A stretch of DNA of 64,000 nucleotides from Candidatus Kapaibacterium sp. (GTDB lineage Bacteria; Patescibacteriota; Patescibacteriia; UBA9934). Positions 46,701 to 61,990 of the stretch are shown here, one piece after another (within the stretch, counting starts at the first letter, position 1; every line of letters starts with the position of its first letter). The stretch is from the NCBI GenBank assembly GCA_044350705.1, contig JBILHA010000001.1:177809-241808 (forward strand), read 5' to 3'. The position numbers and the translations under genes were made by a program. The notes beneath the pieces are model-generated. The model was given only the letters and a program-made list of their open reading frames with translations, was not told the origin of the DNA and made no database searches.

Positions 46701-49700
46701 TGCGTATGATATTTCCAATGCCGGTGTTTCTGAAGGTATTACGTGGGATGCCGATGAACGTATCGCAACGATTGATTTTGTATCAACACTTCCTGAAGAA
46801 ACGGTTATTACTGTTGAGGTGACCTTGGCCACGGACTATACGGGAAACGGATTCTCTCTTCTTGCGGGTATCGATAATCCTTTCTCATTTACTACAGCGG
46901 GTGCCATTATTAACCCCGTCCTCACCTCCGGATCTACACGCGACACTGATAATGACGGAAAAATAGATGCAATTGTTCTCTCCATCGATCAAGATATTAA
47001 TGGACTTACGGTTGCTGCTGCTGACTTTACGGTGACGGGCTACACCATTTCTTCTGCTTCTCGTACGGCTTCTGGTCAAATTACCCTTGTTCTCACCGAA
47101 GGAGGCTCTCTTGATACCGATGCTCGACCAGTAGTACAGGTCGTTGGTTCTGTAGATGGAGTATCTTCTGGTTTTCTTACCTCTGGAAGTATTACTCCGG
47201 CTGACGGTGCCGCACCTCTTGTGGTTTCTGGAGCGTATAAAGATAGTAATGCCGACGGTACGGTAGACCGTGTTGAAGTGTTGTTCTCCGAACCTCTTTC
47301 TTACAGCGCTTGTGAATACAGCGACTTCTCCTTTGGCGGCGCTGATGGGGCAGGGTTTTCTGTAAACGGTTGTGCAGCAGGGAGCGGTGATTACGGAGTA
47401 TTTGCTCTTGCAGGAGCTCCTAGTGGAGATACCTCGCTTACGCTTACCTTCTCGTACACCGCATCTCTTGGAACCACGAACAGTCTTGATGACGCTGCAG
47501 ATAACGCACTTCCTACGTTCTCTGCACTTGCACTTGCTGATGAAGCTCTTCCTGCACGACTTTCTAGTGCATACCAAGATGCTAATGCTGACGGTACGGT
47601 TGACCGTGTAGAACTTGTCTTCTCTGAAGCGGTCACGCTTACCTATGCAGATGCTGATTGGACGGCAACGGCTCATGGACTCACCGGATTTGATGTTACT
47701 GGCATTGCTTCTGGTAACGGTACGGATACCTTGTACCTTACGGCAACGGCAAGTGCTCATGTTACGGGTATTGCTGAGGAGGCAAGTCAACCAACGCTTG
47801 CTTTTACGGCAACGACGGGAAGCTTGGTTGACGGTGAAGGTTCCGCACTCTCTTCACTCACTACATTTGTTCTTCTCGATGATGCTGCTCCTGTTTTGCG
47901 AAGCGATATTGAAAGCGTATATCGTGATACTTCAGGAAATGGTGTTGTTGATCGTGTTGTCTTGCGTTTTACTGAAGATGTTAATGCGACGTACGATGCC
48001 GTAGATTGGGCTGTTACGGAAAATGACTTAGCAGGTCTTACAATTACGAGTGCGTCTGCCGGCTGGGCCTCTACAGTAAGTCTTACGGCTACCGCTGATG
48101 GTGTTCAGACGGGTGTTGGTCTTGGCGCAGAGCCGGGAATTGCTTTTTCTCCCGCGCTTGGTCAAATTGTCGATCGCTCAGGTAATGTGGTCAGTGCTTT
48201 TTCTCGCACGCTCGTTGATGATGCTTCGCCGCTTCTTGTAAGCTCTTCACCCCTTCATGGTGCAACGGGTGTTGCTCTTGATACGAACATTGTTCTTTCA
48301 TTTAGTGAAACAATGGATATCAATAACTTCTCTTTTTCTCTTTCTGAAGTTGTTGCGGGTGAAAGCTTGGGATGGAATGCGGCAGAAGATGAAATTACCA
48401 TTGAATATGCTGATAATTTTGAGTATGAAACTGAATATACGGTCTCACTTCTTGCCGCTCCTGATCTTGCGGGTAATGCGCTTGGCGGTGCATTAATCGG
48501 TTCTGCAAATCCTTTTAGCTTCACGACACTCTCCATTGTTGTGCATCCTGTCCTCACCTCTGGATCTACTCGAGATACCGATAACGATGGAAAGATAGAC
48601 GCCATTGTTCTCTCCATCGATCAAGACATTAATGGATTAACGGTTGCTTCTTCAGATTTTTCGGTGACGGGCTATACCATTTCTTCTGCTTCTCGTACGG
48701 CTTCTGGTGAAATCACTCTCGTTCTCACCGAAGGAGGTTCTCTTGATACCGATGCTCGACCGGCAGTACAGGTTGTTGGTTCTGTAGATGGAGCATCTTC
48801 TGGTTTTCTTACCTCTGGAAGTATTACTCCAGCTGACGGTGCCGCACCTCTTGTGGTATCTGGAGCGTATAAAGATAGCAATGCCGACGGTACCGTAGAT
48901 CGTGTTGAAGTATTGTTCTCCGAACCTCTTTCTTACGGCGCTTGTGAATACGGTGACTTCTCCTTTGGTGGTGCTGATGGGGCAGGGGTTTCTGTAGCGT
49001 CTTGTGGTTCGGGGGATGATGCCTATGGAATCTTTATTCTTTCTGGAACTCCAAGTAACGACACTTCTCTTGAGCTTACGTTTACGTATGCGGCATCTGC
49101 GGGAACTGCAAATAGCCTTGATGACGCTGCAGACAACGCACTTCCTTCCTTCTCTGCACTTGCACTTGCCGACGAAGCTCTTCCTGCACGGCTTTCTAGT
49201 GCATACCAAGATGCTAATGCTGACGGTACGGTAGACCGTGTAGAGCTTGTCTTTTCTGAAGCGGTTACGCTTACCTATGCCGATGCTGATTGGACGGTAA
49301 CGGCTCATGGTCTCGCTGGATTTGACGTTACAGGCATTGCTTCTGGAAACGGCACCGATACTTTGTACCTTTCGGCAATGGCGAGTGCGAATACGACCGG
49401 AATTGGTGAAGAGGATAGTCAGCCAACGCTTGCTTTTACGGCTACGACGGGAAGTTTGGTTGCGCTAGTTGGCGGCTCCGCTTTGCCTGCACTTTCCTCA
49501 TTTTATCTCTCCGATGAGGCGGCTCCTCGCATGATTTCTGGATCGTATTTTGATGAAAATGCTGATGCGCGTGTTGACGCAATGGATATTCTTTTTACTG
49601 AACCTGTCGATGTTCCATTTTGTGAATCCGAAGATTATGCATTTACTGGTGATGATGTGGGATCTCTCGTCGTAATTACATGCCCTGGGGAATCCGCTTC

Positions 49701-51351
49701 TCTTGGGCGATTTACGCTTTCTGGATCTCCAGCTTTTACCACGTATCTCTCTTTCGGCATTACGTATTCACAGATCTCGGGAATTAGTAACAGTATTGTT
49801 GATCTTTTAGGCAATGTCATGATTGATCAGGCGGTTGCATCGTTTGATGATGAAGCGCTTCCTATCATTCGCACGGATAACGGGCATGCTCCGCGCTATG
49901 AAGATGCGAATGGTGACGGTTCAGTAGATCGCGTTCGTCTTTCCATGACGGAAGATGTACTCGTGACGTATGTTGATGCTGAATGGACTGCTTCAGCAAA
50001 TGCATTTGGTACCCTTGATGCTGTTGGTCTTTCGGGTGGTAGTGGTACGTCGACGATTTTCATTTCTCTTGAAGCTCCGAGTGAGCTTACTGGCGTTGGT
50101 TCTTCGGCTCAACCACGTATTGCGTATGCGCCAACGTCTTCGGGTATTACTGACCTTGCGGGAAATGTGGGTCGATCGCTTGCAAGTAGGGCGATGGTTG
50201 ATGCCGCCGCGCCACTTATCAAGGATCTTTTTCCTGATTTTGGTGAGAGTGCCGTTGCAACTGATAGTCTGCCGGTTATTCGCTTTACCGAACCGATGTC
50301 GACGTCGCTTGCTGATACCGTTTTCACGCTTACTCCCTCGGTGGCTGGACTTTCCGGTGTATGGAGTGAGAGTAATGCGGTTTATTCTATGACTGCAACT
50401 TCTGCGCTTGATGCTTCAACGGAATATTTCTTAGCAATTGAGAGTAATGATGTTGTGGGTAATCTCTTTGGAAATGGCATCGTTTCTTCGTTGACGGGTT
50501 CGTTCCCTTGGACATTCACCACTGCGCAAGCTCGTCGATCGGGTTCTCAAGATCTTTTGCCACTTCCTCCGCAAACTCTTTCCGTTACGGTGCATCAGCC
50601 TCTTCCTGCTCCGTTGCCGCTTGGTTATCTTCGTGCAGATCGGCCCATCATTGTAAGTTGGCGAACGACAAGTGTTTTTTCAACGCTTGCACGAGTTTCC
50701 TATCGGGTGAATGAAGGTCCTTGGGAAGTTGCTGTTGAAAATACTACGATGCCTAGTGCTATGGTTCGTCTCCCGTATGATGCGCAAGGTAACGTTGACT
50801 TCATGGTGTCGATTTATGACCTTGATCGAGTAGTTATTGAAGGATTTAGTTTGGGATATGTTGTTGGTGAAGAGGTCGAAGAAATGCCTTCTGATTATCA
50901 TATTGTTTCGTATATCAAGTCAGAAGAGTTTTCCACGATTTACGGACTTGATTCTCTCGGAGTTCGTAGGCCGTTCTTAAATGAACAAGTTTTCTTTACA
51001 TGGGCAGAGCGTTTTGATGAAGTGCACGTTCTTTCTTCCGTGGATCTTGCAGAGTATCCGATTGGATCGCCTATGCTTCCGAAGGCAGAAAGTATTTTGG
51101 TGAAGATTCAGTCTGATCCTCGGGTGTATTTCGTTGTTACTCCTGAATATCCTCAAGATCCTCCTTTGCTTCGTCATGTTCCGAACGAATTAGTTGCGCG
51201 TGAATTGTTCGGTGATGCTTGGGATCGTTCGGTGATCGATATTGAACCTACTTTCTTCACACAATTCACGCTTGGACTTCCGCTAGACGTTTCCTTTGGT
51301 GCGCGTTCGCTCTTTACTCGTGAGGATCTTTCAGCTCGTGCGCTTCGTTGA
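40723..51351 (+). CDS. Giant secreted repeat protein (3542 aa): signal peptide, two Gly-rich beta-helix-like modules, >25 tandem ~100-aa Ca-binding-motif repeats, unique C-terminal domain
   Basis: Single uninterrupted ORF. N-terminal signal/TM (FILTFILLSPFWSEAAA). Duplicated Gly-rich modules ending GGGGGGRVSVLYGTDSS / GGGGGGGRVAIYYGTDST. Alternating repeats with DxNxDGxVDRVxLxFSE and Cys-pair ACE...C motifs. Antisense ORFs in the track are shadows. Confidence 0.8.
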   Translation: MVLFPSSFSRFSRFLKVLGGSIFILTFILLSPFWSEAAACPVTDGGVGDGDGSANGTLTINASTSWTPPATRGDFWDCTGKTVHVTGGATLTFSTVTTSGRFGYLKADNIIVDAGSAISSDGLGCSVSSPGWGFGPNVTTGICTLETTGAGRGGSGSGYSPASGSYGGLGGYGGSPSWLAGSVYGDPISPMLFGSSSGDTNYEDSGPGGGVVWLHATDTLTLDGTISARGLAGASAAAGAGSGGSILLLAQVIDGTTGALNAEGADGKSSGSGRFSGGGGGGRVSVLYGTDSSSWLGSLSPSTVVSGGLSSGGTSTAGEDGTVYKSASYDPAIAFATISDSDADYQVDTITITFDRDLDGATVAMSDFSLDGGYTITSASETSAGVVTLTVAERGYVDVERSITISLVGSVTDTMFGLSSSSDVYYAVSSTCPFFDGSPDDADLARNGSYTIAEAVQLTPSPYRLNCEGLDLVVNSTVTFAGSVSTGDYSHLRADDITLGFGGVFSATERGCQGLAQSAHEPGLDNICGASALSSGNGSSGAGGGGISQARGGGGGYGGNGGQGGSAAALAGFLGGTSYGSSTTPLLFGSTGGGTTGSRGGHAGGIVAITASGTFTWNGSILSQGGNGTGTSGSAAGGGGSGGSVYIQAATLAGSTGSVSAAGGNGYSGSSVNGGGGGGGRVAIYYGTDSTSFVSGLSAAGVAAGGTGPSAAAEGTAGSLYTSATYTAAAPEAIEGFTRDADTDGYLDAIVLLFTEDLDAASLATTDFSVTGYTITGVALTSGNVVTLSLQEGGTPDTSAIPATSIVGSISGATSGTITSGSFVMNDEAYPVAMSASYLDTNVNGAVDRVDIVFSETITFSYNSGDWTFPDAGSFNLVDTTFAVTTNTLRLTVTADAEETSSSTTPTVLYTNTANRLQDASGNFTATFPSALSISDAAAPAINAMTTGDANSDGYIDTLIFVWTENVDTNDGAPPVLADFGTITMPNGGTASSATISDPGGISNTVTLTNVTGQTNIFTGTTSVAINGITGQWSDGTNLTTNPDDSETVIDAASPIIRTDGANAPRYEDSNSDGTIDRIRLIFSENTTITYTDADWTITPNALTSADVSAVSSGSGTTTVYLTATAQSLLTGVGTGTVPTLSYAQSSGSVADATGNQLATVSGVNLVDFANPRLRTDSGNQMAYQDADANGSIDRVRLIFTEPVTITYVDANWVSVANSLTGFDVGALSSGNGTSTVYLTATTSSATTGVGAGTQPTLRFTAGSGGSIVDSASNALASIAATSLIDEALPILLTSRYRDINYNATVDRFDLTFSETMTVATCETGDYTLSGSDASGVSVASCSATGAVVELTPSGIPANDTSLTLALSYNASAGTANSLRDGAANGVASFSSVSLADATSPVPLGGVSRDVNSDGTVDRVVVSFSENVTAAHCDAADYTFSGTHASGLAISACSPSGQDISYTLTGAPVANTALSFSWTYTQAAGTANSLADDIGNVIPNVTLAVTDAAAPVIISGSYTDGNGDGTVDAVSLGFSEAVTVTYDDGDWIANARDLTGFDVTGLTSGSGTSSLVFSATSSSVTGVGALGDEPTLRYTDGAGSLTSATGETPLSISAFTLADNADPLIVSGAYQDDNGNGTVDLVVLSFTEPLDYAACEVGDFSFAGADGSGLSFSSCSAGSGVDGEFVLNGAPSLETTLDIDLSYNALAGLASSLVDSEGNALPSFSALSIDDEATPVLLSSSYQDANADGRVDRVALQFSEPVTLTYADGDWTAIANGLVSFDVTGIHSGNGSATLLLSATAMADRTGVSSISSQPQLSFTATTGSLVDAVGQAITSLSTFSVADAAAPVIISGSYVDSDSDAEVDRVQLLFTEETTINFALADWTVSSGDLTGLAISAIASGNGNALISFDASAAAELTGVGAGIEPTLTYLPVTGSVADRYANALVSSGPHSLVDAADPVLLSTNPSHSELHVDRDADVVLSFSEAMDINTFAYDISNAGVSEGITWDADERIATIDFVSTLPEETVITVEVTLATDYTGNGFSLLAGIDNPFSFTTAGAIINPVLTSGSTRDTDNDGKIDAIVLSIDQDINGLTVAAADFTVTGYTISSASRTASGQITLVLTEGGSLDTDARPVVQVVGSVDGVSSGFLTSGSITPADGAAPLVVSGAYKDSNADGTVDRVEVLFSEPLSYSACEYSDFSFGGADGAGFSVNGCAAGSGDYGVFALAGAPSGDTSLTLTFSYTASLGTTNSLDDAADNALPTFSALALADEALPARLSSAYQDANADGTVDRVELVFSEAVTLTYADADWTATAHGLTGFDVTGIASGNGTDTLYLTATASAHVTGIAEEASQPTLAFTATTGSLVDGEGSALSSLTTFVLLDDAAPVLRSDIESVYRDTSGNGVVDRVVLRFTEDVNATYDAVDWAVTENDLAGLTITSASAGWASTVSLTATADGVQTGVGLGAEPGIAFSPALGQIVDRSGNVVSAFSRTLVDDASPLLVSSSPLHGATGVALDTNIVLSFSETMDINNFSFSLSEVVAGESLGWNAAEDEITIEYADNFEYETEYTVSLLAAPDLAGNALGGALIGSANPFSFTTLSIVVHPVLTSGSTRDTDNDGKIDAIVLSIDQDINGLTVASSDFSVTGYTISSASRTASGEITLVLTEGGSLDTDARPAVQVVGSVDGASSGFLTSGSITPADGAAPLVVSGAYKDSNADGTVDRVEVLFSEPLSYGACEYGDFSFGGADGAGVSVASCGSGDDAYGIFILSGTPSNDTSLELTFTYAASAGTANSLDDAADNALPSFSALALADEALPARLSSAYQDANADGTVDRVELVFSEAVTLTYADADWTVTAHGLAGFDVTGIASGNGTDTLYLSAMASANTTGIGEEDSQPTLAFTATTGSLVALVGGSALPALSSFYLSDEAAPRMISGSYFDENADARVDAMDILFTEPVDVPFCESEDYAFTGDDVGSLVVITCPGESASLGRFTLSGSPAFTTYLSFGITYSQISGISNSIVDLLGNVMIDQAVASFDDEALPIIRTDNGHAPRYEDANGDGSVDRVRLSMTEDVLVTYVDAEWTASANAFGTLDAVGLSGGSGTSTIFISLEAPSELTGVGSSAQPRIAYAPTSSGITDLAGNVGRSLASRAMVDAAAPLIKDLFPDFGESAVATDSLPVIRFTEPMSTSLADTVFTLTPSVAGLSGVWSESNAVYSMTATSALDASTEYFLAIESNDVVGNLFGNGIVSSLTGSFPWTFTTAQARRSGSQDLLPLPPQTLSVTVHQPLPAPLPLGYLRADRPIIVSWRTTSVFSTLARVSYRVNEGPWEVAVENTTMPSAMVRLPYDAQGNVDFMVSIYDLDRVVIEGFSLGYVVGEEVEEMPSDYHIVSYIKSEEFSTIYGLDSLGVRRPFLNEQVFFTWAERFDEVHVLSSVDLAEYPIGSPMLPKAESILVKIQSDPRVYFVVTPEYPQDPPLLRHVPNELVARELFGDAWDRSVIDIEPTFFTQFTLGLPLDVSFGARSLFTREDLSARALR

Positions 51352-51414: not shown

Positions 51415-54090
51415 TTGGATTGTATGGGTTTTTTGAGCAAGATTTTTCCAGATGCAAATACGCGTGTCGTTCAATCGCTTAAAAAAGAGGTTGATCGCAT
51501 GAATGCTCTTGAAGAGGGGATTCAATCGCTTTCAGATGAGGCCTTGCGTGCAAAAACCGCAGAGTTTAAGACGCGTCTTGCGGAAGGGGAAAAGCTTGAT
51601 GCCATTCTTTCCGAAGCTTTTGCAGTATGCCGTGAAGCGGCTCGTCGGACGCTTGGACAGCGCCATTATGATGTGCAGCTCATGGGAGGTCTTGTTTTGC
51701 ATAAGGGTGGTATTGCGGAAATGCGCACGGGTGAAGGAAAGACGCTTACCGCTACTGCGGCCGTGTATGCCAATGCGCTCGTAGGAAAAGGTGTACATGT
51801 GATTACCGTGAACGATTATCTTGCAAAACGTGATGCTGCATGGATGGGTCGCGTTTTCCATTTTCTTGGTCTTTCCACGGGCTGTATCCAGCATGAAAGC
51901 GGGTATGTTTTTGATGAAGCATTTCGTGCCCCAGAGCAAACACAAGAAGAAAAGGAAGCTGCAGCTGAGAAGAGTGGCTATAAGGTGCAGATGGATTTCT
52001 TGCGCCCTTGTGCGCGTAAGGAGGCGTATGCTGCAGATATTACGTACGGAACGAATAATGAATTTGGTTTTGACTACCTTCGCGATAACATGGCTCAGAC
52101 TGCAGAGGCGATGGTGCAGCGTGGTCTTCATTTCGCTATTGTTGATGAAGTTGACTCTATTTTGATCGATGAAGCGCGCACGCCGCTCATTATTTCTGCC
52201 CCTGCTGAGGAATCTTCAGATACGTATTATCGCTTTGCAGAAATTGCAAAGACGCTTATTGCAGGAGAAGACTATAATGTTGATGAAAAGCTTCGCACGG
52301 CAACGTATACCGAAGCTGGTCTTCAAAAAGTTGAGCGTGCGCTGGGGGTTGAGAATTTGTATGAAACGGGGTTGCAAAACGTCCACCACGCCGAGCAGGC
52401 GCTTCGTGCGCAGGCGCTCTTTCATGTTGATAAAGAGTATGTCGTGCGTAATGCTGAAGTCATGATTGTTGATGAATTTACGGGACGTCTCATGGAAGGT
52501 CGTCGGTATTCGGAGGGTCTTCACCAGGCGATTGAGGCGAAAGAAGGGGTGAAGATTCAGCGTGAAAGCAAGACGCTTGCCACGATTACCTTCCAGAATT
52601 ATTTCCGTTTGTATGAGAAGCTTTCGGGAATGACCGGTACTGCAGCAACAGAGGCAGAAGAATTTTCTAAGATTTATAGTTTAGAAGTGACGCAGATTCC
52701 TACCCATCGTGAGAATAAGCGTACCGATCACTCGGATAAAATTTTCCGCAATGAAAAGGGGAAGTGGATGGCAGTCGTAAAAGAGGTGAAGGCGCGTCAT
52801 GAAAAGGGACAGCCGGTACTTATTGGTACGGTTTCTATCGATAAAAATCAGTTGTTATCACAGGCGCTGACTGCGGCAGGTATTCCGCATAAGATGCTTA
52901 ACGCAAAGAACCACGAACAAGAAGCTGAGATTATTGCGCAGGCTGGTCGGCGTGGTGCGGTGACGCTTGCGACCAACATGGCAGGACGTGGTGTCGATAT
53001 TTTGCTCGGCGGAAACCCGCAGGATGCGGAAGAAGCAGCTGCGGTACGTGCACTTGGCGGACTCTTTGTTATTGGTACAGAACGACATGAGAGTCGTCGC
53101 ATTGACAACCAGCTTCGGGGTCGTGCGGGACGCCAGGGAGATCCGGGAGAAACGCAATTCTTCGTGTCGCTCGATGATGATCTCATGCGCATTTTCGGAT
53201 CGGATCGTATTAAGGGCATGATGCAGTCTTTGGGTATTCCCGATGATGAGCCTATTGTGAGCGGTATGGTGACGCGTTCGCTTGAGAAGGCGCAGCAGCG
53301 TGTTGAGGGTCATCATTTCGATACGCGTAAGCATGTCTTGCAATACGACGATGTGCTTAATAAACACCGTCTTGCGATTTATGCAGAGCGTCGCGGTTTG
53401 GTTACAGGTGAGCGTGCAGATGCGCATGAGGAAGTGATGCGTATGATCGAGGGGGAGATTGAACGCGTGGTTCTTTTCCATACGAGCGCTGAAAAAACGG
53501 ATATTCCGCAAGAATTTTCTGAAGAAGGGAAGCTTGCAGAAGGAGATTGGAATCCAAAGGAACTCATTGAAACTTTCAATACTATTGTTCCCCTCACCGA
53601 AGAAGAGAAGATTGCGTTACAGGCAGCGCTTCCAGAGGTTTCTCAAGATAAAGAAAAGCTTCTGCAGGATCGTACGAAGATTATCGAAGAGATGCTTTCG
53701 ATTGTTCGTGTTCGGCTTGTAAAATCAATTGAAGAGTTTGGTGACGAAGAAAAGGTGCGACGCTTGGAGCGAGGATTACTCTTACGTGCGATTGATGGAG
53801 CATGGATGCGTCATTTGGAAGATATGACGTATCTTCGTCGCACGATTGGACTCCAGGGATATGCGCAGCGTGATCCACTCGTGGAGTATAAGAAGGAAGC
53901 ATTCCGTTTGTATGCAGCGCTTCGTGAAGATGTTGCAAAGGAAGTGGTCTACAATGTCGTGAAACTTCTTTCTCAAGCAGCAAGTGCTCAAAAGTTTCTT
54001 GCAGCCGCTCCTGATTTGCTGAAGCAAGCAGCAAAGATGTTTGGAGGAAAGAATGGTACGAGCGGAAGCAGCGGTGTTGTGGGGGGATAA
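51415..54090 (+). CDS. secA: Preprotein translocase ATPase SecA
   Basis: 891 aa. DEAD-like motor motifs (MRTGEGKTLTATAAVYANAL, IVDEVDSILIDEARTPLIIS, ATNMAGRGVDI), preprotein cross-linking and helical scaffold regions. Confidence 0.95.
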   Translation: MDCMGFLSKIFPDANTRVVQSLKKEVDRMNALEEGIQSLSDEALRAKTAEFKTRLAEGEKLDAILSEAFAVCREAARRTLGQRHYDVQLMGGLVLHKGGIAEMRTGEGKTLTATAAVYANALVGKGVHVITVNDYLAKRDAAWMGRVFHFLGLSTGCIQHESGYVFDEAFRAPEQTQEEKEAAAEKSGYKVQMDFLRPCARKEAYAADITYGTNNEFGFDYLRDNMAQTAEAMVQRGLHFAIVDEVDSILIDEARTPLIISAPAEESSDTYYRFAEIAKTLIAGEDYNVDEKLRTATYTEAGLQKVERALGVENLYETGLQNVHHAEQALRAQALFHVDKEYVVRNAEVMIVDEFTGRLMEGRRYSEGLHQAIEAKEGVKIQRESKTLATITFQNYFRLYEKLSGMTGTAATEAEEFSKIYSLEVTQIPTHRENKRTDHSDKIFRNEKGKWMAVVKEVKARHEKGQPVLIGTVSIDKNQLLSQALTAAGIPHKMLNAKNHEQEAEIIAQAGRRGAVTLATNMAGRGVDILLGGNPQDAEEAAAVRALGGLFVIGTERHESRRIDNQLRGRAGRQGDPGETQFFVSLDDDLMRIFGSDRIKGMMQSLGIPDDEPIVSGMVTRSLEKAQQRVEGHHFDTRKHVLQYDDVLNKHRLAIYAERRGLVTGERADAHEEVMRMIEGEIERVVLFHTSAEKTDIPQEFSEEGKLAEGDWNPKELIETFNTIVPLTEEEKIALQAALPEVSQDKEKLLQDRTKIIEEMLSIVRVRLVKSIEEFGDEEKVRRLERGLLLRAIDGAWMRHLEDMTYLRRTIGLQGYAQRDPLVEYKKEAFRLYAALREDVAKEVVYNVVKLLSQAASAQKFLAAAPDLLKQAAKMFGGKNGTSGSSGVVGG

Positions 54091-54275
54091 AGATAAGGAA
54101 AATCCCAACGTGAGAAGGGATTTTTCTTTGAAGAGAGAAAAAATTCAAGGTTCACCTGAAATTCTCACGTTCTTTGAAGAGCTTGTGCAGATACTGGAAA
54201 ACGATAAACAGCGACTCTTTCCCCGCTAGGAACTTTCTCCTATACTCCAGGACGTTCTTATTCCTTTTTCGAGCT

Positions 54276-54623
54276 ATGCAATCCATCCATGAAATTTATT
54301 CTCGTTTAAAATTAAAGAAGGCTGAGCGAAAAGATTTGAAAACCTCTTTTCAGGATGCGCTTAAAAATCATGCTCGTTATCAGCAGGTACTCGAAGAGAT
54401 GATGAAATTGAAAATTGAAAAGAAGGCGATTGAGAATGAGATTCTTGCTACTGAGATGGACAAAGCCAAGCTCGAGGAATTGAATGTGGATATTAAGACA
54501 GATACCGAGCTTATCTCTGATCTCGCACTTACCATGTATGTTTCAGGAGAGCCTGTGGAAATTACCGATGATTATAATGTGCGCTGGGTTCCTGCTTTCC
54601 GTGTAACCTTTAAAAAGAGCTAA
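54276..54623 (+). CDS. Hypothetical coiled-coil protein
   Basis: 115 aa from ATG 54276 (MQSIHEIYSRLKLKKAERKDLK...). Charged heptad-like sequence. Followed by a terminator. Confidence 0.35.
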   Translation: MQSIHEIYSRLKLKKAERKDLKTSFQDALKNHARYQQVLEEMMKLKIEKKAIENEILATEMDKAKLEELNVDIKTDTELISDLALTMYVSGEPVEITDDYNVRWVPAFRVTFKKS

Positions 54624-54630
54624 ACATTAG

Positions 54631-54660
54631 CGAAAAAAGAGCATGCATGCTCTTTTTTCG
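54631..54660 (+). terminator. Rho-independent terminator
   Basis: gaaaaaag-agcatgcatgct-cttttttcg: a palindromic hairpin with a T-run. Confidence 0.55.
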
Positions 54661-54723: not shown

Positions 54724-56757
54724 ATGACTACGTACGATGCTCAACGCGTCCGAGAAAAGCGCAGAAATGCCTTTATTGCCTCGGGAATACTCGTTCTTTC
54801 TCTTATTGCTTGGCTTGGAAGTTATCCTCAGCCCTACAATGCTTTTGCCGGTTGGGTCGAAGGATCTACGGGACTCTCACTCCCGCGCGTTTCTGAACAG
54901 CCGCTTACGCTTGGTCTTGATCTCCAAGGGGGGGTGCATTTGACCTATGGTGCTGACATGACGAATGTTGCCGAGGCTGACCGAGCTGAGGCTTTGGAGG
55001 GAGTTCGTGATGTGATTGAGCGCAGGGTTAATGCTTTTGGTGTTGTGGAGCCTGTGGTGCAGTCTACCGCTTCCAATGGTTATCGAGTGATTGTTGATTT
55101 GCCAGGAGTGACAAACGCTACCGAGGCGGTTGCGCAAATCGGAGAAACGCCTGTGCTTGAATTTAAAGTTCCTCGAGAAGATTTTTCATTTGAACCTACC
55201 TCCGAAGATCAGGCTGTTGTTGATGCGGCTCAGCCTGCTGAGCGTACGGCTGCTTTAGCGGTGCTTGATCAGGCGCTTGCGCGTGATGCGGACTTTTCTT
55301 CGCTTGCAAACCAATATTCAATTGATGCGTCTACCAAAGAGCAGGGGGGATATGTTGGTTTTATTGCTGCTGATGATCCAGAGTTCGGTGGCCTTGCAGA
55401 ACGCATTGCTTCTGACCGCTTGCGCCCAGGAGTTATTGATGGGCTTTACGAAGGGACATCACGCATGCATGTCGTAAATTATCTTGGTTCACGCGATGAG
55501 ACCGAGGTACAGAGCGCCCACATTCTTATTTGTTATTTTGGCGCAAAGGGTTGTGCGAGCGAGATGTCACGCGATGAAGCTCGTGCTTTGGCAGACGAAG
55601 TTCAGGGTCAGGCGACGAGTAGGAATTTTGCTGATCTTGCAAAACAGTATTCTACTGATCCTGGGAGTGCCTCTGAAGGAGGGGATCTTGGGTGGGTGAA
55701 GGCAGGGCAGATGATTGAGGTATTCGAAGATTCACTTTTCGCTCTCCGTGATGGGCGTATTTCTGAAGTCGTAGAGACGGAGTTTGGTTTTCATATCATT
55801 TATCGCGTAGATAGTCGCACAACGAAAGCCTACGAGATTGCGCATATCGAAATGCCCTGGACCACGCTTTCTGATGTTGTTGCGGTTGATCCATGGGAGA
55901 ATACTGAGCTCTCCGGGAAGCATGTCCGCAATGCTGCGGTGGCGATAGACCCTGTTACGCAGCGCCCCTATGTTGCTATTGAATTTAACGAAGAAGGGGG
56001 CGCGTTATTTGAGCAGATCACAACTGACCATATCGGTGAAGTTATTGGTATTTTCCTTGATGGGGAGCCTATTACGACGCCCGTGGTTCAGCAGACTATT
56101 TATCGGGGTACCCCTGCAAGTATTACCGGTGATTTCACCACGAATGACGCGAAGCTTCTTGCTCAGCGTTTGACCGCGGGAGCTCTTCCGGTTCCTATTG
56201 CCCTTGAATCTCAGCAAACTATTGGACCTACTTTAGGGCTTGCATCGCTTGATATGAGCGTTAAGGCGGGATTGCTCGGTTTTGTGCTGATCGCCGTATT
56301 TATGGTGGCGTACTATCGTCTTCCCGGTCTCTTTGCCACCTTTGCTCTGGCTATTTATGCGGGTTTAAACCTTGTACTTTACAAAGTTTTCGGGGTGACG
56401 ATTACGTTGGCGGGTATTGCTGGTCTCGTGCTTTCCATGGGTATTGCGGTTGATGCGAATGTGCTCGTGTATGAGCGTCTCAAGGAGGAATTGCGTGCTG
56501 GCCGCGATCTTCCTTCGGCACTTGAGGAAGCGTATCGTCGTGCATGGCCTTCGATTCGAGATGGGAATTTCACTACCCTTATCGCGACTATTGTTTTGTA
56601 CTTCATGAGTACGGGGTTCATTCGCGGTTTTGCGCTTACGCTCACGATTGGTGTATTGCTTTCCATGTTTACTGCTCTTACGGTTACGCGCGGCATGCTT
56701 CGTTTAGTTGCTCGCTCTAAAGCTTTCCGGAAAAAGATCTTCTTCCTTGGACTCTAA
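54724..56757 (+). CDS. secD: Protein translocase subunit SecD with two parvulin-type PPIase domains inserted in the periplasmic P1 domain
   Basis: SecD N-terminus (LGLDLQGGVHLTY; ...VIVDLPGVTNATEAVAQIGETPVLEFKV), P1 base (IGPTLG) and six C-terminal TMs. Inserted: two PpiC-like units, with motifs SIDASTKEQGGYVGFI and SAHIL...STDPGSASEGGDLGWVKAGQMIEVFEDSLFALRDGRISEVVETEFGFHIIYRV. Confidence 0.85.
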   Translation: MTTYDAQRVREKRRNAFIASGILVLSLIAWLGSYPQPYNAFAGWVEGSTGLSLPRVSEQPLTLGLDLQGGVHLTYGADMTNVAEADRAEALEGVRDVIERRVNAFGVVEPVVQSTASNGYRVIVDLPGVTNATEAVAQIGETPVLEFKVPREDFSFEPTSEDQAVVDAAQPAERTAALAVLDQALARDADFSSLANQYSIDASTKEQGGYVGFIAADDPEFGGLAERIASDRLRPGVIDGLYEGTSRMHVVNYLGSRDETEVQSAHILICYFGAKGCASEMSRDEARALADEVQGQATSRNFADLAKQYSTDPGSASEGGDLGWVKAGQMIEVFEDSLFALRDGRISEVVETEFGFHIIYRVDSRTTKAYEIAHIEMPWTTLSDVVAVDPWENTELSGKHVRNAAVAIDPVTQRPYVAIEFNEEGGALFEQITTDHIGEVIGIFLDGEPITTPVVQQTIYRGTPASITGDFTTNDAKLLAQRLTAGALPVPIALESQQTIGPTLGLASLDMSVKAGLLGFVLIAVFMVAYYRLPGLFATFALAIYAGLNLVLYKVFGVTITLAGIAGLVLSMGIAVDANVLVYERLKEELRAGRDLPSALEEAYRRAWPSIRDGNFTTLIATIVLYFMSTGFIRGFALTLTIGVLLSMFTALTVTRGMLRLVARSKAFRKKIFFLGL

Positions 56758-56761
56758 TTGT

Positions 56762-57658
56762 ATGAAGTCTCTTAATATCATGCGTCTTAGTACGCTTTGG
56801 CTCAGTCTTTCTGGAGTTATCGTTGCCGCATCTCTTGCTGCATTCATGTTTTTTGGCCTGAACTACGGGGTAGATTTTACGGGAGGTGCTCTTCTTGAGC
56901 TTAACGTGCCCTCGCTTTCTTCCCCTGAGGAACTTCGGGGACATCTTGAATCCTCAGGGTTTGCGGAAATCAAGGTGCAAGAGGGTGAGGGAGACCGGGT
57001 ATTTGTACGAGCAGGGCAGCTTTCTGAAGATGAGCATCAGCGTTTGCTCGCCGAGGTTCAGTCACGCTATGCAGATGCGTCTGAAGTGCAATATACGTTT
57101 GTAGGTCCTTCTGTGGGTTCTGAGCTTCGCCGTTCAGCCACGATCGCTATCGGTGTTCTCTTGGTACTTATTGCTTTGTATGTTGCCTGGGCGTTTCGTA
57201 ATGTGGGAGAAAAAGTTTCTGCATGGAAATTTGGTACGATTACGCTGCTTACTGCCGCGCATGACGTCATTGTTCCTCTTGGGGTTTTTGCAGTTCTGGG
57301 GCGCGTGTGGGGATATCAAATTGATACGGCATTTGTAGCGGCTATTCTCACTATTCTTGGCTACTCCATTAATGATACGATTGTAGTTTTCGATCGTACG
57401 CGTGAGCATTTAGCGGCAAAGCGTACCGGGGAGTCTTTCCGAGAACTGGTAAACAAAAGCGTTAATGAAACGATGGGTCGCTCCATTAACACGACGCTTG
57501 CGGTACTCCTTCCTCTCTTGGCGATTTTCTTTGTTGGGGGCGAATCTACGCGTCCTTTTGTTCTTGCGCTGATCGTTGGAGTTGCGGCGGGAGCATATTC
57601 TTCTCTTTTTCTTGCAAGTCCTCTCTTGGTTCTTTGGCAGGAAAAGACGACGAAATAA
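56762..57658 (+). CDS. secF: Protein translocase subunit SecF
   Basis: ATG 56762 (MKSLNIMRLSTLWLSLSGVIVAAS). SecF pattern DFTGGALLEL..., six TMs (AILTILGYSINDTIVVFDRTRE). Confidence 0.85.
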   Translation: MKSLNIMRLSTLWLSLSGVIVAASLAAFMFFGLNYGVDFTGGALLELNVPSLSSPEELRGHLESSGFAEIKVQEGEGDRVFVRAGQLSEDEHQRLLAEVQSRYADASEVQYTFVGPSVGSELRRSATIAIGVLLVLIALYVAWAFRNVGEKVSAWKFGTITLLTAAHDVIVPLGVFAVLGRVWGYQIDTAFVAAILTILGYSINDTIVVFDRTREHLAAKRTGESFRELVNKSVNETMGRSINTTLAVLLPLLAIFFVGGESTRPFVLALIVGVAAGAYSSLFLASPLLVLWQEKTTK

Positions 57659-57708: not shown

Positions 57709-59307
57709 ATGCTATATAGCGATATGCTTGGGATCGTCCTCAATCTTCCGCCTACTCTTGAACGCTTTTTTGCAGCCACTCCTCCGGATGTTTTGGCGGC
57801 ATATGCACTCCTTATTGTTGGCCCCGTCCCTATTTTAGGGGTCATCGTTTGGGGATTTTCTCATCTTTGGCTTGAATACAAGCAAGAGGTTTTTGAACAT
57901 AGCTTAAAGTGGATCAATCTCGAGGTACGTGTTCCACAAACGAGCATTCAAACTCCAAAAGGCATGGAGAATTTCTTTTCTAACCTTGCGGGAGCAAAGA
58001 GTGGACTTACGTGGAAAGAAACATGGCTTCTCGGAAAAACACAGGCGCGTTTTTCTTTTGAATTGGTGAGTAATGGCGGGGATATTTCTTTCGTGATTCG
58101 TGCGTTGGAAAAATTCCGAGATATTTTGGAGGCTGATTTATACGCGCAGTATCCTGAAGCCCAAATTACCGAGGTGCCTGATTATACCGGCATGGTTGCG
58201 AAGAAGTATCCTAATGATGACCAGGAGTTGTTTGGAGCAGAAATTGTATTGGCAAAAGAACGTTTTTTACCTATTCGTAATTACGATAGTTTTGAACATC
58301 AAGGTGAAAAGGAAAATCGATTTAAAGATCCGCTTTTGTCCCTTCTTGAGCTCATGGGAAAAATGCAGCCCGGTGAGCACTTGTGGGTGCAGCTTATTAT
58401 TCGTCCGCCTCAGAATGAAGATTGGGTGAAAGAGGGTTTGGCATATTTAGGAAAGGTGATGGGGAAGGAGGAAAAAGCTCCGAAAAAGAGCGGTGGCATT
58501 CTGGGTGCGATTGATGGTCTCTTTTGGTTTCCTTTTGGCGTTTTAGAGCAGGTTACTGGCATGAAGATTGGAGGAGGTGCGGAAAAGGCCGAAAAGAAGC
58601 CGGATGATTTTAAGATGTTCCGATTAACAAGTGCGGAGAAAATTCAGATTGACCAGGTTGCAGAAAAGATTTCAAAAGTAGGGTGGGAGGCAAAGATTCG
58701 TTGGATCGGTGTTGGACCTAAGAATAGTTTTAGAAAGGGGGTTTTTGCTTCCGGCATGAAGGGTGCTTTTCAGCCTTTTAATAGTCCTATTCTTAATCAA
58801 CTTTCTACTCATGGTCCTGCTGTTCCAAAAGATGATTATTTTTGGCAGAAGTGGTCGTATGGCAAAAAACAGGGCATTCTTGCTCAGCGGTATGCGGCGC
58901 GATCATTTTCTGCGGGTGCGACTCCTACCATTTTAAATGCTGAAGAGCTTGCAACGCTTTTCCATTTTCCTTCTGCGGATGCGCGTACGCCTGTGCTTAC
59001 GGCAATGGGCGCACGTCGTTCAGAAGCGCCTAACGTTCTTCCCGCGGCTCCTGTTGGTCGGCTTGGAGGTACGCCTGTGAGCGAGCCTACTTCTGACGAT
59101 TGGCGAAGAGTGTATCTTGAACGCAGAACGCAGCAGGGTACTACGCATGCCGTTCCTGCGGGTATTCCCGAAAAGCCTTCGGCGCCTCATGAATTTCCAG
59201 ATCATGCGCCTTTTCATGATGCGATCCTTCCTCATCCGCAGGCGCCTCAAGAACATGGTTTGCATGATGAAAAACAGGATGCTCCTCCTGATAATTTGCC
59301 GGTGTAG
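57709..59307 (+). CDS. Hypothetical membrane protein, operonic partner of the downstream P-loop ATPase
   Basis: 532 aa. N-terminal TM (VLAAYALLIVGPVPILGVIVWGFSHLW), internal hydrophobic patch GGILGAIDGLFWFPFGVL, Pro/His-rich C-terminus. Stop at 59307, next gene ATG at 59310. Confidence 0.45.
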   Translation: MLYSDMLGIVLNLPPTLERFFAATPPDVLAAYALLIVGPVPILGVIVWGFSHLWLEYKQEVFEHSLKWINLEVRVPQTSIQTPKGMENFFSNLAGAKSGLTWKETWLLGKTQARFSFELVSNGGDISFVIRALEKFRDILEADLYAQYPEAQITEVPDYTGMVAKKYPNDDQELFGAEIVLAKERFLPIRNYDSFEHQGEKENRFKDPLLSLLELMGKMQPGEHLWVQLIIRPPQNEDWVKEGLAYLGKVMGKEEKAPKKSGGILGAIDGLFWFPFGVLEQVTGMKIGGGAEKAEKKPDDFKMFRLTSAEKIQIDQVAEKISKVGWEAKIRWIGVGPKNSFRKGVFASGMKGAFQPFNSPILNQLSTHGPAVPKDDYFWQKWSYGKKQGILAQRYAARSFSAGATPTILNAEELATLFHFPSADARTPVLTAMGARRSEAPNVLPAAPVGRLGGTPVSEPTSDDWRRVYLERRTQQGTTHAVPAGIPEKPSAPHEFPDHAPFHDAILPHPQAPQEHGLHDEKQDAPPDNLPV

Positions 59308-59309
59308 CT

Positions 59310-61193
59310 ATGTCGCATGATCATCACGACGAACCCGTCCTTCATTCTTCTGAACCTTCAGGACCTTTTCAGTACGATCATGAAAAGCATGTTACGTACT
59401 TTGCGCAGACGAATTTTCGTAATCAAATGCGGAAATTCGGTATTAAAACCGACGATCGTCGCCGTCACATGTATGTGATTGGAAAGACGGGTATGGGTAA
59501 GACTACCCTTCTTGAAAACATGTTCCTTTCGGATGTGTATGCGGGGCATGGGTGTTGTTATATCGATCCTCACGGAGATACCGCCGAGAAGCTCATTGAT
59601 TTTATTCCTGCTTGGCGCATTAATGACGTGGTGTACTTTAATCCTGCGGATTTTGATAATCCTATTGGATTCAACGTTTTGGAAGTCAATCATGATCTTC
59701 CTCATGATCTTCTCGTTGAAGAGAAGGAGCGTATTTCCTCTTCACTGCTCTCGGTTTTCAAGAAGATTTGGGAGAATGTGTGGAGTGCGCGCATGGAGTA
59801 CATCATGAACAATACGGTGAAGGCGCTTTTGGATACCCCTGGTACGACGCTTTTGGGTATTAACCGCATGCTTTCTGATAAGGATTATCGATTGGAAATT
59901 GTTCGTAACATCAAGGATCCTATCGTGAAGCAATTTTGGGTGCAGGAATTTGCTGCGTATGATGCAAAGTTTGCTTCGGAAGCAGTGGCTCCTATTCAAA
60001 ATAAGGTAGGTCAATTTATTTCTTCCGCAGTTATTCGCAATATCGTTGCACAGGCGAAGAGCTCGTTGAATCTTCGAGATGTCATGGACAATGAGAAGAT
60101 TTTCATCGTGAACCTTTCCAAAGGAAGAAATGGTGATGAAGCGATGCGTTTACTTGGAGGCATGCTCATTACGAAGATCCAGATTGCAGCGATGGAACGC
60201 GTTGATACTCCGGAAAAGCTTCGTAAAGATTTTTATCTTTATGTAGACGAATTTCAGAATTTTGCCGTAGATTCTTTTGCGAGCATTCTTTCCGAGGCGC
60301 GAAAATATCGGTTGAATCTTATTTTGGCGCACCAGTACATTGCTCAGCTTTCTGAACCGGTGCGTGATGCGGTATTTGGTAACATCGGCACTATCGTTTC
60401 TTTCCGCGTAGGTTCTCCGGATGCACTCTTTTTGGAGCCTGAGTTCATGCCGCGCTTTATGGCGCAGGATATTATCGAGCTTCCTCGTGCTGGCGTGTAT
60501 GTCAAGCTCATGATTGATGGTGTTACCAGTCAGCCCTTTTCTGCCTCGACGCTTCCTCCGATTGGTCAGTCGACGGGCAGTACGCAGAAGGTTATTGAAC
60601 AGTCTCGTGAACGATATTCGGGGAATCGGAAGAATATCGAAGAGCGTGTTATGGCGTGGAGTGGTTTTGGCGATGATGTAAATATTGATGAAAAATTGAA
60701 AGAGGTTTCTGATGCGAAAAAAGAAGCGAAGAAAGCAAAGTATAGTTTTACGTATGACTGTACACGATGCGGAAAGCAATTTTTGCTTCCGGTAGAGCTT
60801 GACCGTTCCCGTCCTATTTACTGTGAAGAATGTAAAGCTATCGTGGATTCGGAACGACAGCGTGCGAAAGCAAAGAGTGAGGCAAAGAAGCAGCCGAGTA
60901 CTGCGCCGTCTGGAGCGCCGGTGCGCGCGAAAGATGGGGAGTTGGTGGTTCGTCCAGTTGCTGAGCCGGTTTCTCTTTCTGCGCTCCAGCATGCTGACGC
61001 AGGAAGTGCGGATGCGCAAAAGAAAAAGAGAAAGCGCAAGAGAAAAAAGAAGTCGACTTCAGAGCATTCGGCGACTTCCGGATCTGTATCTTCAGTTCCT
61101 TCGGACGGTCGAGAATTCTCGCTTGATCCGTCTTCGTCCGACTCTTCTTCTCTTCCTCATCCTACGCTTCCTCCTGAGTCATCCCCCGTATGA
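59310..61193 (+). CDS. TraD/VirD4/HerA-superfamily P-loop ATPase with C-terminal zinc ribbon and polybasic tail
   Basis: Walker A HMYVIGKTGMGKTTL followed by YIDPHGD (T4CP/VirB4-like). Walker B FYLYVDEFQNF. LILAHQY. C-terminal CxxC...CxxC (YDCTRCGKQF...IYCEECK) then KKKRKRKRKKK. No N-terminal TM. Confidence 0.5.
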   Translation: MSHDHHDEPVLHSSEPSGPFQYDHEKHVTYFAQTNFRNQMRKFGIKTDDRRRHMYVIGKTGMGKTTLLENMFLSDVYAGHGCCYIDPHGDTAEKLIDFIPAWRINDVVYFNPADFDNPIGFNVLEVNHDLPHDLLVEEKERISSSLLSVFKKIWENVWSARMEYIMNNTVKALLDTPGTTLLGINRMLSDKDYRLEIVRNIKDPIVKQFWVQEFAAYDAKFASEAVAPIQNKVGQFISSAVIRNIVAQAKSSLNLRDVMDNEKIFIVNLSKGRNGDEAMRLLGGMLITKIQIAAMERVDTPEKLRKDFYLYVDEFQNFAVDSFASILSEARKYRLNLILAHQYIAQLSEPVRDAVFGNIGTIVSFRVGSPDALFLEPEFMPRFMAQDIIELPRAGVYVKLMIDGVTSQPFSASTLPPIGQSTGSTQKVIEQSRERYSGNRKNIEERVMAWSGFGDDVNIDEKLKEVSDAKKEAKKAKYSFTYDCTRCGKQFLLPVELDRSRPIYCEECKAIVDSERQRAKAKSEAKKQPSTAPSGAPVRAKDGELVVRPVAEPVSLSALQHADAGSADAQKKKRKRKRKKKSTSEHSATSGSVSSVPSDGREFSLDPSSSDSSSLPHPTLPPESSPV

Positions 61194-61990
61194 CCATTTT
61201 TGAGGCAGTGATCTTGGGCGCCGTACAGGGCTTTACGGAATTTCTTCCTATTTCAAGTTCAGGACACCTTATTTTGTTTCCTGCGATTTTGGGTTGGGAG
61301 GCGCAAAGTGTGGTTTTTGATGTCGCGGTACACGTTGCTACTCTCGGAGCGATTCTTGTTGCATTGTGGCCGAGGATTTCTGCTTGGATCAAAGAATTGC
61401 GCAGGGGTAATAAAACCGCGTGGCGTCTTGCGATGTATCTTGTTTTGGCTACCATTCCTGCGGGACTGTTAGGAATTTTTGGTGGGGATTGGCTTGAAGG
61501 GCAGCGTACGCTTCCCATGGTGGGTATCATGCTTATTTTTTGGGGAATCATTTTGTATATCGCTGATGTGATTGCCGTAAAGCTTTCTCGAACGGTCGTG
61601 AAAGATGGGCAGATTACGCTCCCCTTTGCGCTTGCGATAGGCGTTGCTCAGGCGCTCGCTCTTTTTCCTGGCACTTCTCGTTCGGGTGCGAGTATCAGTA
61701 CGGCAATGCTTCTTGGGTTTGATAGAAAAACGGCTGCAAACTTTTCTTTTCTTCTTGCTATTCCTGCAATTTCTGGTGCGGGTCTGGTGACGGCACTTGA
61801 TATTTCCGAAACGGGTTTAGATGTTCCGATTATTTCATTGGTGGCAGGATGTCTTGTCGCTTTTATTACCGGTATTTTTGCGATTCGATTCCTTTTTGCA
61901 GTTATCGAAAAGGGAGGATTTCGCTGGTTTGCGCTTTATCGTGTAGTGTTGGGAGTACTTGTCCTCAGTCTTTTCTATGCTTCTTCGTGA
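61190..61990 (+). CDS. uppP: Undecaprenyl-diphosphate phosphatase
   Basis: MTIFEAVILGAVQGFTEFLPISSSGHLIL, GTSRSGASI, eight TMs. Overlaps the previous stop by 4 nt. Confidence 0.9.
   Translation: MTIFEAVILGAVQGFTEFLPISSSGHLILFPAILGWEAQSVVFDVAVHVATLGAILVALWPRISAWIKELRRGNKTAWRLAMYLVLATIPAGLLGIFGGDWLEGQRTLPMVGIMLIFWGIILYIADVIAVKLSRTVVKDGQITLPFALAIGVAQALALFPGTSRSGASISTAMLLGFDRKTAANFSFLLAIPAISGAGLVTALDISETGLDVPIISLVAGCLVAFITGIFAIRFLFAVIEKGGFRWFALYRVVLGVLVLSLFYASS

Follow-up and report, generated by a model that had tools for sequence, protein, structure and literature searches.

A SecD homologue with a double parvulin insertion between the P1 base and the P1 head in Patescibacteria

How the Sec channel hands exported proteins over to folding factors outside the cytoplasm is not settled, and the evidence that parvulin chaperones (PpiD, SurA, the Mycoplasma dome) touch the SecDF head is recent and mostly low-resolution or predicted. 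In SecDF, the cavity within the P1 head crosslinks to precursor proteins, and the head swings back and forth between an upright form and one that faces the membrane (PMC5974789). [quoted passage not shown] SurA associates with the holo-translocon, and in AlphaFold predictions both SurA parvulin domains lie on the SecDF P1 head (PMC9987972). In Mycoplasma pneumoniae, lipoproteins that resemble PrsA and carry PPIC domains build a dome on SecDF; just one of these domains is catalytic, and it is the one in contact with substrate density (10.1101/2025.04.25.650208; 10.1101/2024.09.05.611430). Here we describe a secD gene from a 64,000-nucleotide stretch of a Patescibacteria genome (contig JBILHA010000001.1; this whole stretch is hereafter called the window), the product of which carries two tandem parvulin units inside its own P1 region.

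The gene occupies positions 54724..56757 of the window on the forward (+) strand, as do all genes and protein segments given below on that strand, and consists of an uninterrupted open reading frame (ORF) of 677 amino acids (aa) plus stop, exactly as listed in an earlier note on this DNA. The protein scored 357.7 bits against TIGR01129, the NCBIfam equivalog model for SecD (cutoff 244.4), with residues 63-659 aligned to positions 1-397 of the 397-position model in a single stretch. The Pfam families PF07549, PF21760, PF22599 and PF02355 were all matched above their cutoffs and in the canonical SecD order, consisting of Sec_GG (59-80), SecD_1st (93-149), two Rotamase/Rotamase_3 stretches (jointly 118 bits), SecDF_P1_head (393-490) and SecD_SecF_C (494-661). 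The first transmembrane (TM) helix, TM1 (residues ~15-35; 54766..54828), was located by a hydropathy scan, corresponds to helix 2-33 of an AlphaFold2 (AF2) model and is preceded by the basic segment RVREKRRN. Given the positive-inside rule and the known topology of SecD, the P1 region with its parvulin insert is therefore predicted to be extracytoplasmic. Next come, at 54898..55170, the GG motif (59-80) and SecD_1st (93-149), which makes up the N-terminal portion of the P1 base (PF07549, PF21760); they align to residues 28-122 of Thermus thermophilus SecDF. The SecD_1st segment ends in a conserved IGETPVLEFK strand, and F147 is present in 79/79 species. The C-terminal membrane domain (residues 494-661; 56203..56706; PF02355) gave a 174-bit alignment to T. 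thermophilus SecDF 160-428. The hydropathy scan and the AF2 helices agree on the N-terminal TM and on TM2-TM6; the earlier note had rightly recognised the N-terminal TM and the P1 base, but its C-terminal bundle of six TMs is a bundle of five, TM2-TM6, with six TMs in the protein in total. Within this domain GIAVDANVL pairs with GAAVDGNVL of T. thermophilus, and D577, A578 and N579 of the AVDANV motif were invariant in 45/45 homologues. The aspartate of the AVDxNV motif (D577 here) conducts protons in T. thermophilus SecDF. Crystal structures of SecDF were the best fold matches, and a gene for the partner subunit, secF (56708..57658; PF02355, 186 bits), lies directly downstream. Because of the TIGR01129 score, the Pfam set, these fold matches and the adjoining secF, the 677-aa protein is, judged by its sequence, a bona fide SecD and a full member of the family, and it is predicted to serve in a patescibacterium (Candidate Phyla Radiation, CPR) as one subunit of SecDF, the secretion motor that is driven by protons.

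Alignment to T. thermophilus SecDF mapped the insertion to the connection between base and head. On the N-terminal side the alignment pairs residues 57-154 with T. thermophilus 28-122, and on the C-terminal side residues 396-665 with 160-428, leaving an insert at residues 150-392 (~240 residues, net ~200) between the P1 base and the P1 head. The intervening T. thermophilus segment (123-159, TGTTVAQINQALRENPRLNREELEKDLIKPEDLGPPL) has 37 residues and is helix/coil-like by composition, without an HIL-type strand. The parvulins had been thought to stand in place of the P1 head; the head is, however, kept downstream of them (residues 393-490; 55900..56193), where it scored 85.7 bits against PF22599 (cutoff 27; profile 18-114 of 114) and aligns to T. 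thermophilus SecDF from residue 160. An insertion site shared with the enlarged SecD of Escherichia coli was ruled out, as only ~20 residues separate SecD_1st (227-285) from the head (306-431) in that protein. The extra mass of E. coli SecD lies elsewhere (at SecD-TM1, and between the GG motif and SecD_1st), so the base-to-head junction is not a commonly used insertion site. The two linkers of the insert differ in conservation. The base-to-insert linker (residues 150-159; 55171..55200) is variable, is mostly non-consensus in a 45-sequence alignment and has a predicted local distance difference test score (pLDDT) of 68 for block 151-160, whereas the insert-to-head linker (residues 379-392, WTTLSDVVAVDPWE; 55858..55899) is highly conserved, with D384 in 68/79 and W391 in 77/79 species. 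The region 373-392 displayed the highest identity of the whole protein (79%).

Related genomes were surveyed with an alignment of base, insert and head, taking one genome per species and using the best 80 loci, which are the 80 loci referred to throughout. All covered the query end to end at 40-61% identity, and 78 of the 80 held the whole architecture as one intact ORF, so that the fusion occurs in at least 78 species and the proposal of a SecD with two tandem parvulins in P1, as opposed to a mis-joined frame, is upheld. Lineages named in the records include Candidatus Uhrbacteria, Falkowbacteria, Magasanikbacteria, Buchananbacteria and Nomurabacteria as well as the 'Parcubacteria/Patescibacteria group'. 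The best 120 database homologues (55-97% identity; NCBI, JGI, ENA and Logan) all displayed the same Pfam set (120/120), and the identical protein was found on three contigs of up to 509 kb. The insert is ~240 aa long in 68/79 sequences and is never down to one domain. After clustering at 50% identity the fusion was spread over several clusters, with SecD parts in 11 of the 150 best representatives, four of them full length. Taken together, the alignments show that the double-parvulin insertion is fixed across a large clade. No other parvulin was found within the 64-kb window. Many species-representative metagenome-assembled genomes with this locus (L003, L004, L006, L009, L012 and many others) bear the record title 'uncultured Gammaproteobacteria', and a single one (65% GC) bears 'Candidatus Binatia'; at the 'Binatia' locus secD, secF, an ORF of the orf532 type and a VirD4-like gene follow each other as in the window, and given this shared Patescibacteria-type synteny such record titles are unreliable for taxonomy.

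Profile searches of the insert returned rotamase matches above cutoff for both units, the second of which (parvulin unit 2, residues 259-365; 55498..55818) is a complete PpiC-type domain. Scanned alone, unit 2 scored 96.1 bits against Rotamase_3 (profile 16-112 of 116) and 88.8 bits against Rotamase (1-95 of 97). It superposes on the peptidyl-prolyl isomerase (PPIase) domains of PrsA, SurA-P2 and Pin1 with TM-scores of 0.8-0.88 and a root mean square deviation (rmsd) of 2.0-3.4 A. The canonical motifs that had been quoted for this unit are present, and it contains the parvulin active-site set of two histidines on beta1 and beta4, an Asp/Cys, a Met/Phe pocket and a Ser/Thr, here H266, D312, M330, F334, T352 and H357. 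Across the 79 species H266 and H357 were each found in 79/79, T/S352 in 79/79, F334 in 78/79, D/E312 in 74/79 and M330 in 64/79, while the unit as a whole averages just 53% identity to its homologues. This pattern shows strong purifying selection on the predicted active site, and unit 2 is likely to be an active, non-phospho-specific prolyl isomerase. The protein has two cysteines only, C270 and C277, both within the loop that connects beta1 and alpha1 of unit 2 (Cys270-x6-Cys277; 55531..55554). Both are found in 75/79 species and both are missing in the other four, and the motif H-x3-C-x6-C occurs in 8/11 fusion representatives compared to 0/139 stand-alone parvulin representatives. The pair probably forms a structural disulfide. 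Stand-alone triple-parvulin lipoproteins (P0121 and others) were considered as the donor of the module, which was not established; their scores sum three ~40%-identical domains, and they are without the Cys pair.

The first unit (parvulin unit 1, residues 160-258; 55201..55497) had been taken for a second PpiC-like unit, and it does match the same profiles, but taken alone it falls short of a full canonical parvulin. The unit spans alpha1 to beta4, lacks an internal beta1 and has a degenerate catalytic site in most lineages. Scanned alone it scored 28.1 bits against Rotamase_3 (cutoff 22.5) and 27.3 bits against Rotamase (cutoff 21.7), covering profile positions 13-78 of 97 only. Units 1 and 2 share 31% identity over 83 residues (E 2e-6), and unit 1 is modelled with a pLDDT of 85-92. 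Its beta4 histidine (H249) survives in 11/79 species and H374, the residue proposed to pair with it, in 23/79. We infer that the main role of unit 1, as of the P1 domain of SurA, is to bind or to act as a scaffold without catalysis. The window protein itself has both H249 and H374, so unit 1 may be catalytic in its sub-lineage.

A candidate for the missing first strand of unit 1 lies on the far side of unit 2, where residues 366-378 (TTKAYEIAHIEMP; 55819..55857) form a trailing beta1-like strand that is proposed to complete the unit 1 sheet. The full-length AF2 model (insert pLDDT 85-94) shows 247-269 and 355-378 as two unbroken strands of the same length. In both cases the next beta1 histidine lies 17 positions past a beta4 histidine, and 266+357 and 249+374 both sum to 623; a single antiparallel ribbon that pairs the two histidines of unit 2 would thus place H249 beside H374 as well. 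A phmmer alignment pairs ...FGFHIIYRVDSRTTKAYEIAHIEMPWTT with ...FGYHII-KVEEKTPRGVRARHILMGATT of a SurA-like protein, where the second parvulin has VRARHILMG as its genuine beta1. In a second AF2 model, made without residues 366-392, beta2 of unit 1 (210-214) was gone, its beta3 and beta4 were fragmented and strand 247-269 was broken at 254-260, with unit 2 unaffected; these changes match the prediction of the ribbon model. H249 and H374 occur together in 9/11 cases, a co-occurrence that is confounded by phylogeny. The two AF2 models, the histidine spacing and the homology alignment suggest, as a well-supported inference, that residues 366-378 supply the first strand that unit 1 lacks, giving a strand-swapped double parvulin. 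Units 1 and 2 would then be joined by a two-stranded antiparallel ribbon with the ends of the module close together, which is what insertion into a loop requires. The simplest origin for such a module would be an out-of-register excerpt of a tandem parvulin array, comprising alpha1-beta4 of one domain, a whole second domain and beta1 of a third. That the trailing strand (366-378) is a native SecD connector was considered unlikely, as T. thermophilus 123-159 is without such a strand and the phmmer match is a parvulin beta1.

Apart from the insert, the protein resembles canonical SecD and SecDF (T. thermophilus 3AQP/5YHF, Deinococcus radiodurans 5XAN, E. coli SecD), sharing TM1, the GG motif, the P1 base and head, the TM2-6 bundle with the AVDxNV aspartate and the secF partner gene, and the SecDF structures are its best sequence as well as fold matches. 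It differs at the base-to-head connection, which has 37 residues in T. thermophilus and ~20 in E. coli compared to ~240 with two parvulins here. For the insert, the best two-domain match among solved structures was SurA of E. coli (1M5Y), with 218-223 aligned Foldseek columns at 30% identity. SurA likewise has tandem parvulins of which the first is degenerate and the second catalytic; the inter-domain geometry differs, however, with an rmsd of ~11 A in the same comparison. The fusion protein scored 73.7 bits against the SurA model PRK10770 (cutoff 394), aligning at 176-373 over the two parvulin domains only, and no SurA_N Pfam match, SurA N-terminal chaperone domain or C-terminal tail was found in it. 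SurA is also soluble and reversibly bound, whereas the module described here is covalently inserted. Patescibacteria of this kind are generally thought to be without an outer membrane, in which case the outer membrane proteins that are SurA substrates would be absent.

PrsA, a Gram-positive lipoprotein, is similar in being an extracytoplasmic, membrane-tethered and non-phospho-specific parvulin that acts on secreted proteins, and PrsA PPIase domains were the best single-domain structural matches to unit 2 (TM-score 0.86-0.88). PrsA carries a lipobox, and its single parvulin is set between two chaperone segments, one N-terminal and one C-terminal; the fusion shows none of these features. Against the PrsA model PRK03095 the fusion protein scored 82.4 bits (cutoff 361), and its parvulins are internal to SecD. 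The fusion is thus a member of neither the SurA nor the PrsA family, and plausibly works like them. The PpiD-YfgM system of E. coli also places a membrane-anchored parvulin-domain protein at the Sec translocon (PMC9643414). PpiD is, however, not part of SecD and has a TM anchor and SurA-like domains of its own, in contrast to the conserved parvulin active site and covalent SecD link of the fusion. The Mdp/Mpn444 dome of M. pneumoniae is alike in that a genome-reduced organism without an outer membrane has SecDF physically coupled to PrsA-like PPIC domains, one of them catalytic. The dome differs in being built from large separate lipoproteins arranged as a trimeric chamber, with sequence kinship limited to the parvulin fold, compared to a compact in-chain insertion here.

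We consider it probable that this protein is a SecD in which a double parvulin, set between the P1 base and the substrate-binding P1 head, couples translocation to folding or holding. The most likely function would be co-translocational folding or holding of exported proteins, in effect a covalent version of the associations with SecDF that other bacteria form non-covalently through PpiD/YfgM, SurA, PrsA or the Mycoplasma dome. The module would be loosely tethered to the base by the variable linker and tightly tethered to the head by the highly conserved one, and because of this difference we propose that it travels with the head. The head would capture the polypeptide leaving SecYEG and the parvulins would bind it and isomerise its prolyl bonds, with unit 1 binding the emerging chains and unit 2 isomerising them, so that translocation would be coupled to folding or holding within a single polypeptide.

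A bolder version has the parvulins riding the proton-driven head, the power stroke of which would cyclically present and release the chain, so that the protein would be an energy-coupled extracytoplasmic folding machine in a compartment that has no ATP, built on a disulfide-stabilised, strand-swapped (circularly permuted) and previously undescribed double-parvulin fold; the fusion would in addition be natural 'Rosetta stone' evidence that the docking proposed in model bacteria for the parvulins of SurA, PpiD and PrsA on the SecDF head is physiological. We regard this extended version as doubtful and put it forward tentatively.

Several points weigh against a double parvulin that couples translocation to folding. 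The full-length AF2 model has a predicted template modelling score (pTM) of 0.40, and it is uncertain where the module lies with respect to the head cavity and how the domains are arranged to each other. The PPIase activity of unit 2 is read from conserved residues alone, and the chaperone function of SurA, PpiD and PrsA is often separable from isomerase activity, with the role of the PpiD parvulin itself questioned (PMC9643414). The strand-complementation topology is taken from AF2 secondary-structure strings, arithmetic and homology as opposed to observed contacts. Placing the trailing strand before unit 1 gave 28.7 bits in Pfam compared to 28.2 for unit 1 alone, 27.7 for unit 1 with its native N-terminal flank and 27.8 with a scrambled strand.

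The strongest rival holds that the insert is a purely non-catalytic holdase or scaffold, which binds and shields unfolded chains or recruits partners without isomerising prolyl bonds. The loss of both unit 1 histidines in most species is in line with it, as is the proposal of a non-catalytic role for the PpiD parvulin domain, the functional importance of which has been questioned (PMC9643414), and largely for SurA; in the Mycoplasma dome, too, catalytic residues are kept in just one of several PPIC domains (10.1101/2025.04.25.650208). The catalytic residues of unit 2 are, however, invariant or nearly so over 79 species at 40-61% identity, in a unit the rest of which averages 53%, and this is the pattern of selection on catalysis and not on the fold alone. 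We therefore consider a holdase without isomerase activity unlikely. A second rival has the insert acting on SecDF or on the envelope, either by limiting or gating the swing of the P1 head or by anchoring the motor to the wall or surface layer (S-layer). The module does sit exactly at the base-to-head connection, where the head pivots, and its link to the head is the segment that is best conserved in the whole protein. A mechanical role would, however, not need a conserved parvulin active site, no wall-binding Pfam domain that could serve as an anchor was found in the protein, and the parvulin partners of the Sec machinery that have been studied by experiment all act on substrates (PMC9643414, PMC9987972), which makes such a role highly improbable. 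An artificial join of a secD fragment and a distinct prsA-like gene, made by faulty sequencing or assembly, can be dismissed, since SecD parts flank the parvulins on both sides in one frame, and the single ORF recurs in 78/80 species assemblies, the domain set in all 120 best homologues and the identical protein on three contigs.

Several features of the surrounding genes were also recorded. The secF gene is directly 3' of secD in 72/80 related loci. As listed, the secF ORF has a TTG start that overlaps secD by 50 nucleotides (nt), and an ATG at 56762 lies 4 nt past the secD stop; this ATG is more likely the secF start, and a gap of 4 nt is the commonest secD-secF spacing in the related loci as measured between stop-to-stop reading frames. 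Upstream of secD lies secA (51415..54090), recognised by SecA motifs in the ORF translation, and a secA homologue is upstream of secD in 37/80 loci. A small ORF between secA and secD (54174-54623, +; 149 aa from TTG) has homologues in 9/80 loci and is followed at 54633-54658 by a palindromic terminator-like hairpin, A6-GAGCATGCATGCTC-T6, so secD-secF may have its own promoter. The small ORF was considered as a secretion-monitoring arrest peptide and rejected, having no RAPP-like C-terminus and no Pfam match, occurring in 9/80 loci and being followed by the terminator-like hairpin. Immediately upstream of secA, a 3542-aa ORF with bacterial Ig-like (Big_5) domains (40723-51351, +) probably encodes a giant surface protein.

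Directly after secF, positions 57709-61193 (+) hold a 532-aa ORF (orf532) without a Pfam match and then a 627-aa TrwB/VirD4/TraG-like coupling ATPase. The order secD-secF-orf532-VirD4-like is kept in many relatives (orf532 in 51/80 and the ATPase in 34/80 loci), a hint that a type IV-like ATPase and the Sec accessory genes may be functionally connected in this clade. The VirD4-like gene is followed by a BacA/UppP undecaprenyl-diphosphatase gene (61190-61990, +; PF02673, 246.8 bits), syntenic in 8/80 loci. Over the whole window (1-64000) strand asymmetry was pronounced, with GC skew positive in 32/32 two-kb windows, AT skew negative in 31/32 and nearly all long ORFs on the + strand.

The earlier note had not recognised the architecture as a described one, and full-text searching found no paper on a SecD-parvulin fusion, with most subscription journals outside its coverage. 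A 'Giant genes' preprint mentioning SecD, rotamase and CPR was checked as a possible earlier description and is unrelated, as it concerns separate genes. The protein itself is, however, already deposited; an identical sequence is public as 'protein-export membrane protein SecD', with precomputed Pfam matches that list both domain types, and a homologue from Ca. Uhrbacteria GW2011_GWD2_52_7 (UniProt A0A0G1XG76) is also named plain 'SecD'.

A clade-fixed covalent fusion at the base-to-head junction with an invariant isomerase site provides independent evolutionary support for a coupling of parvulin chaperones to the SecDF head, and, being a single polypeptide, it lends itself as a simple system to structural and biochemical work. 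The strand-swapped double parvulin, if true, would be a case of a tandem-repeat segment captured out of register as an insertable module. For Patescibacteria, the fusion is a pointer to one way in which very small genomes organise the folding of envelope proteins.

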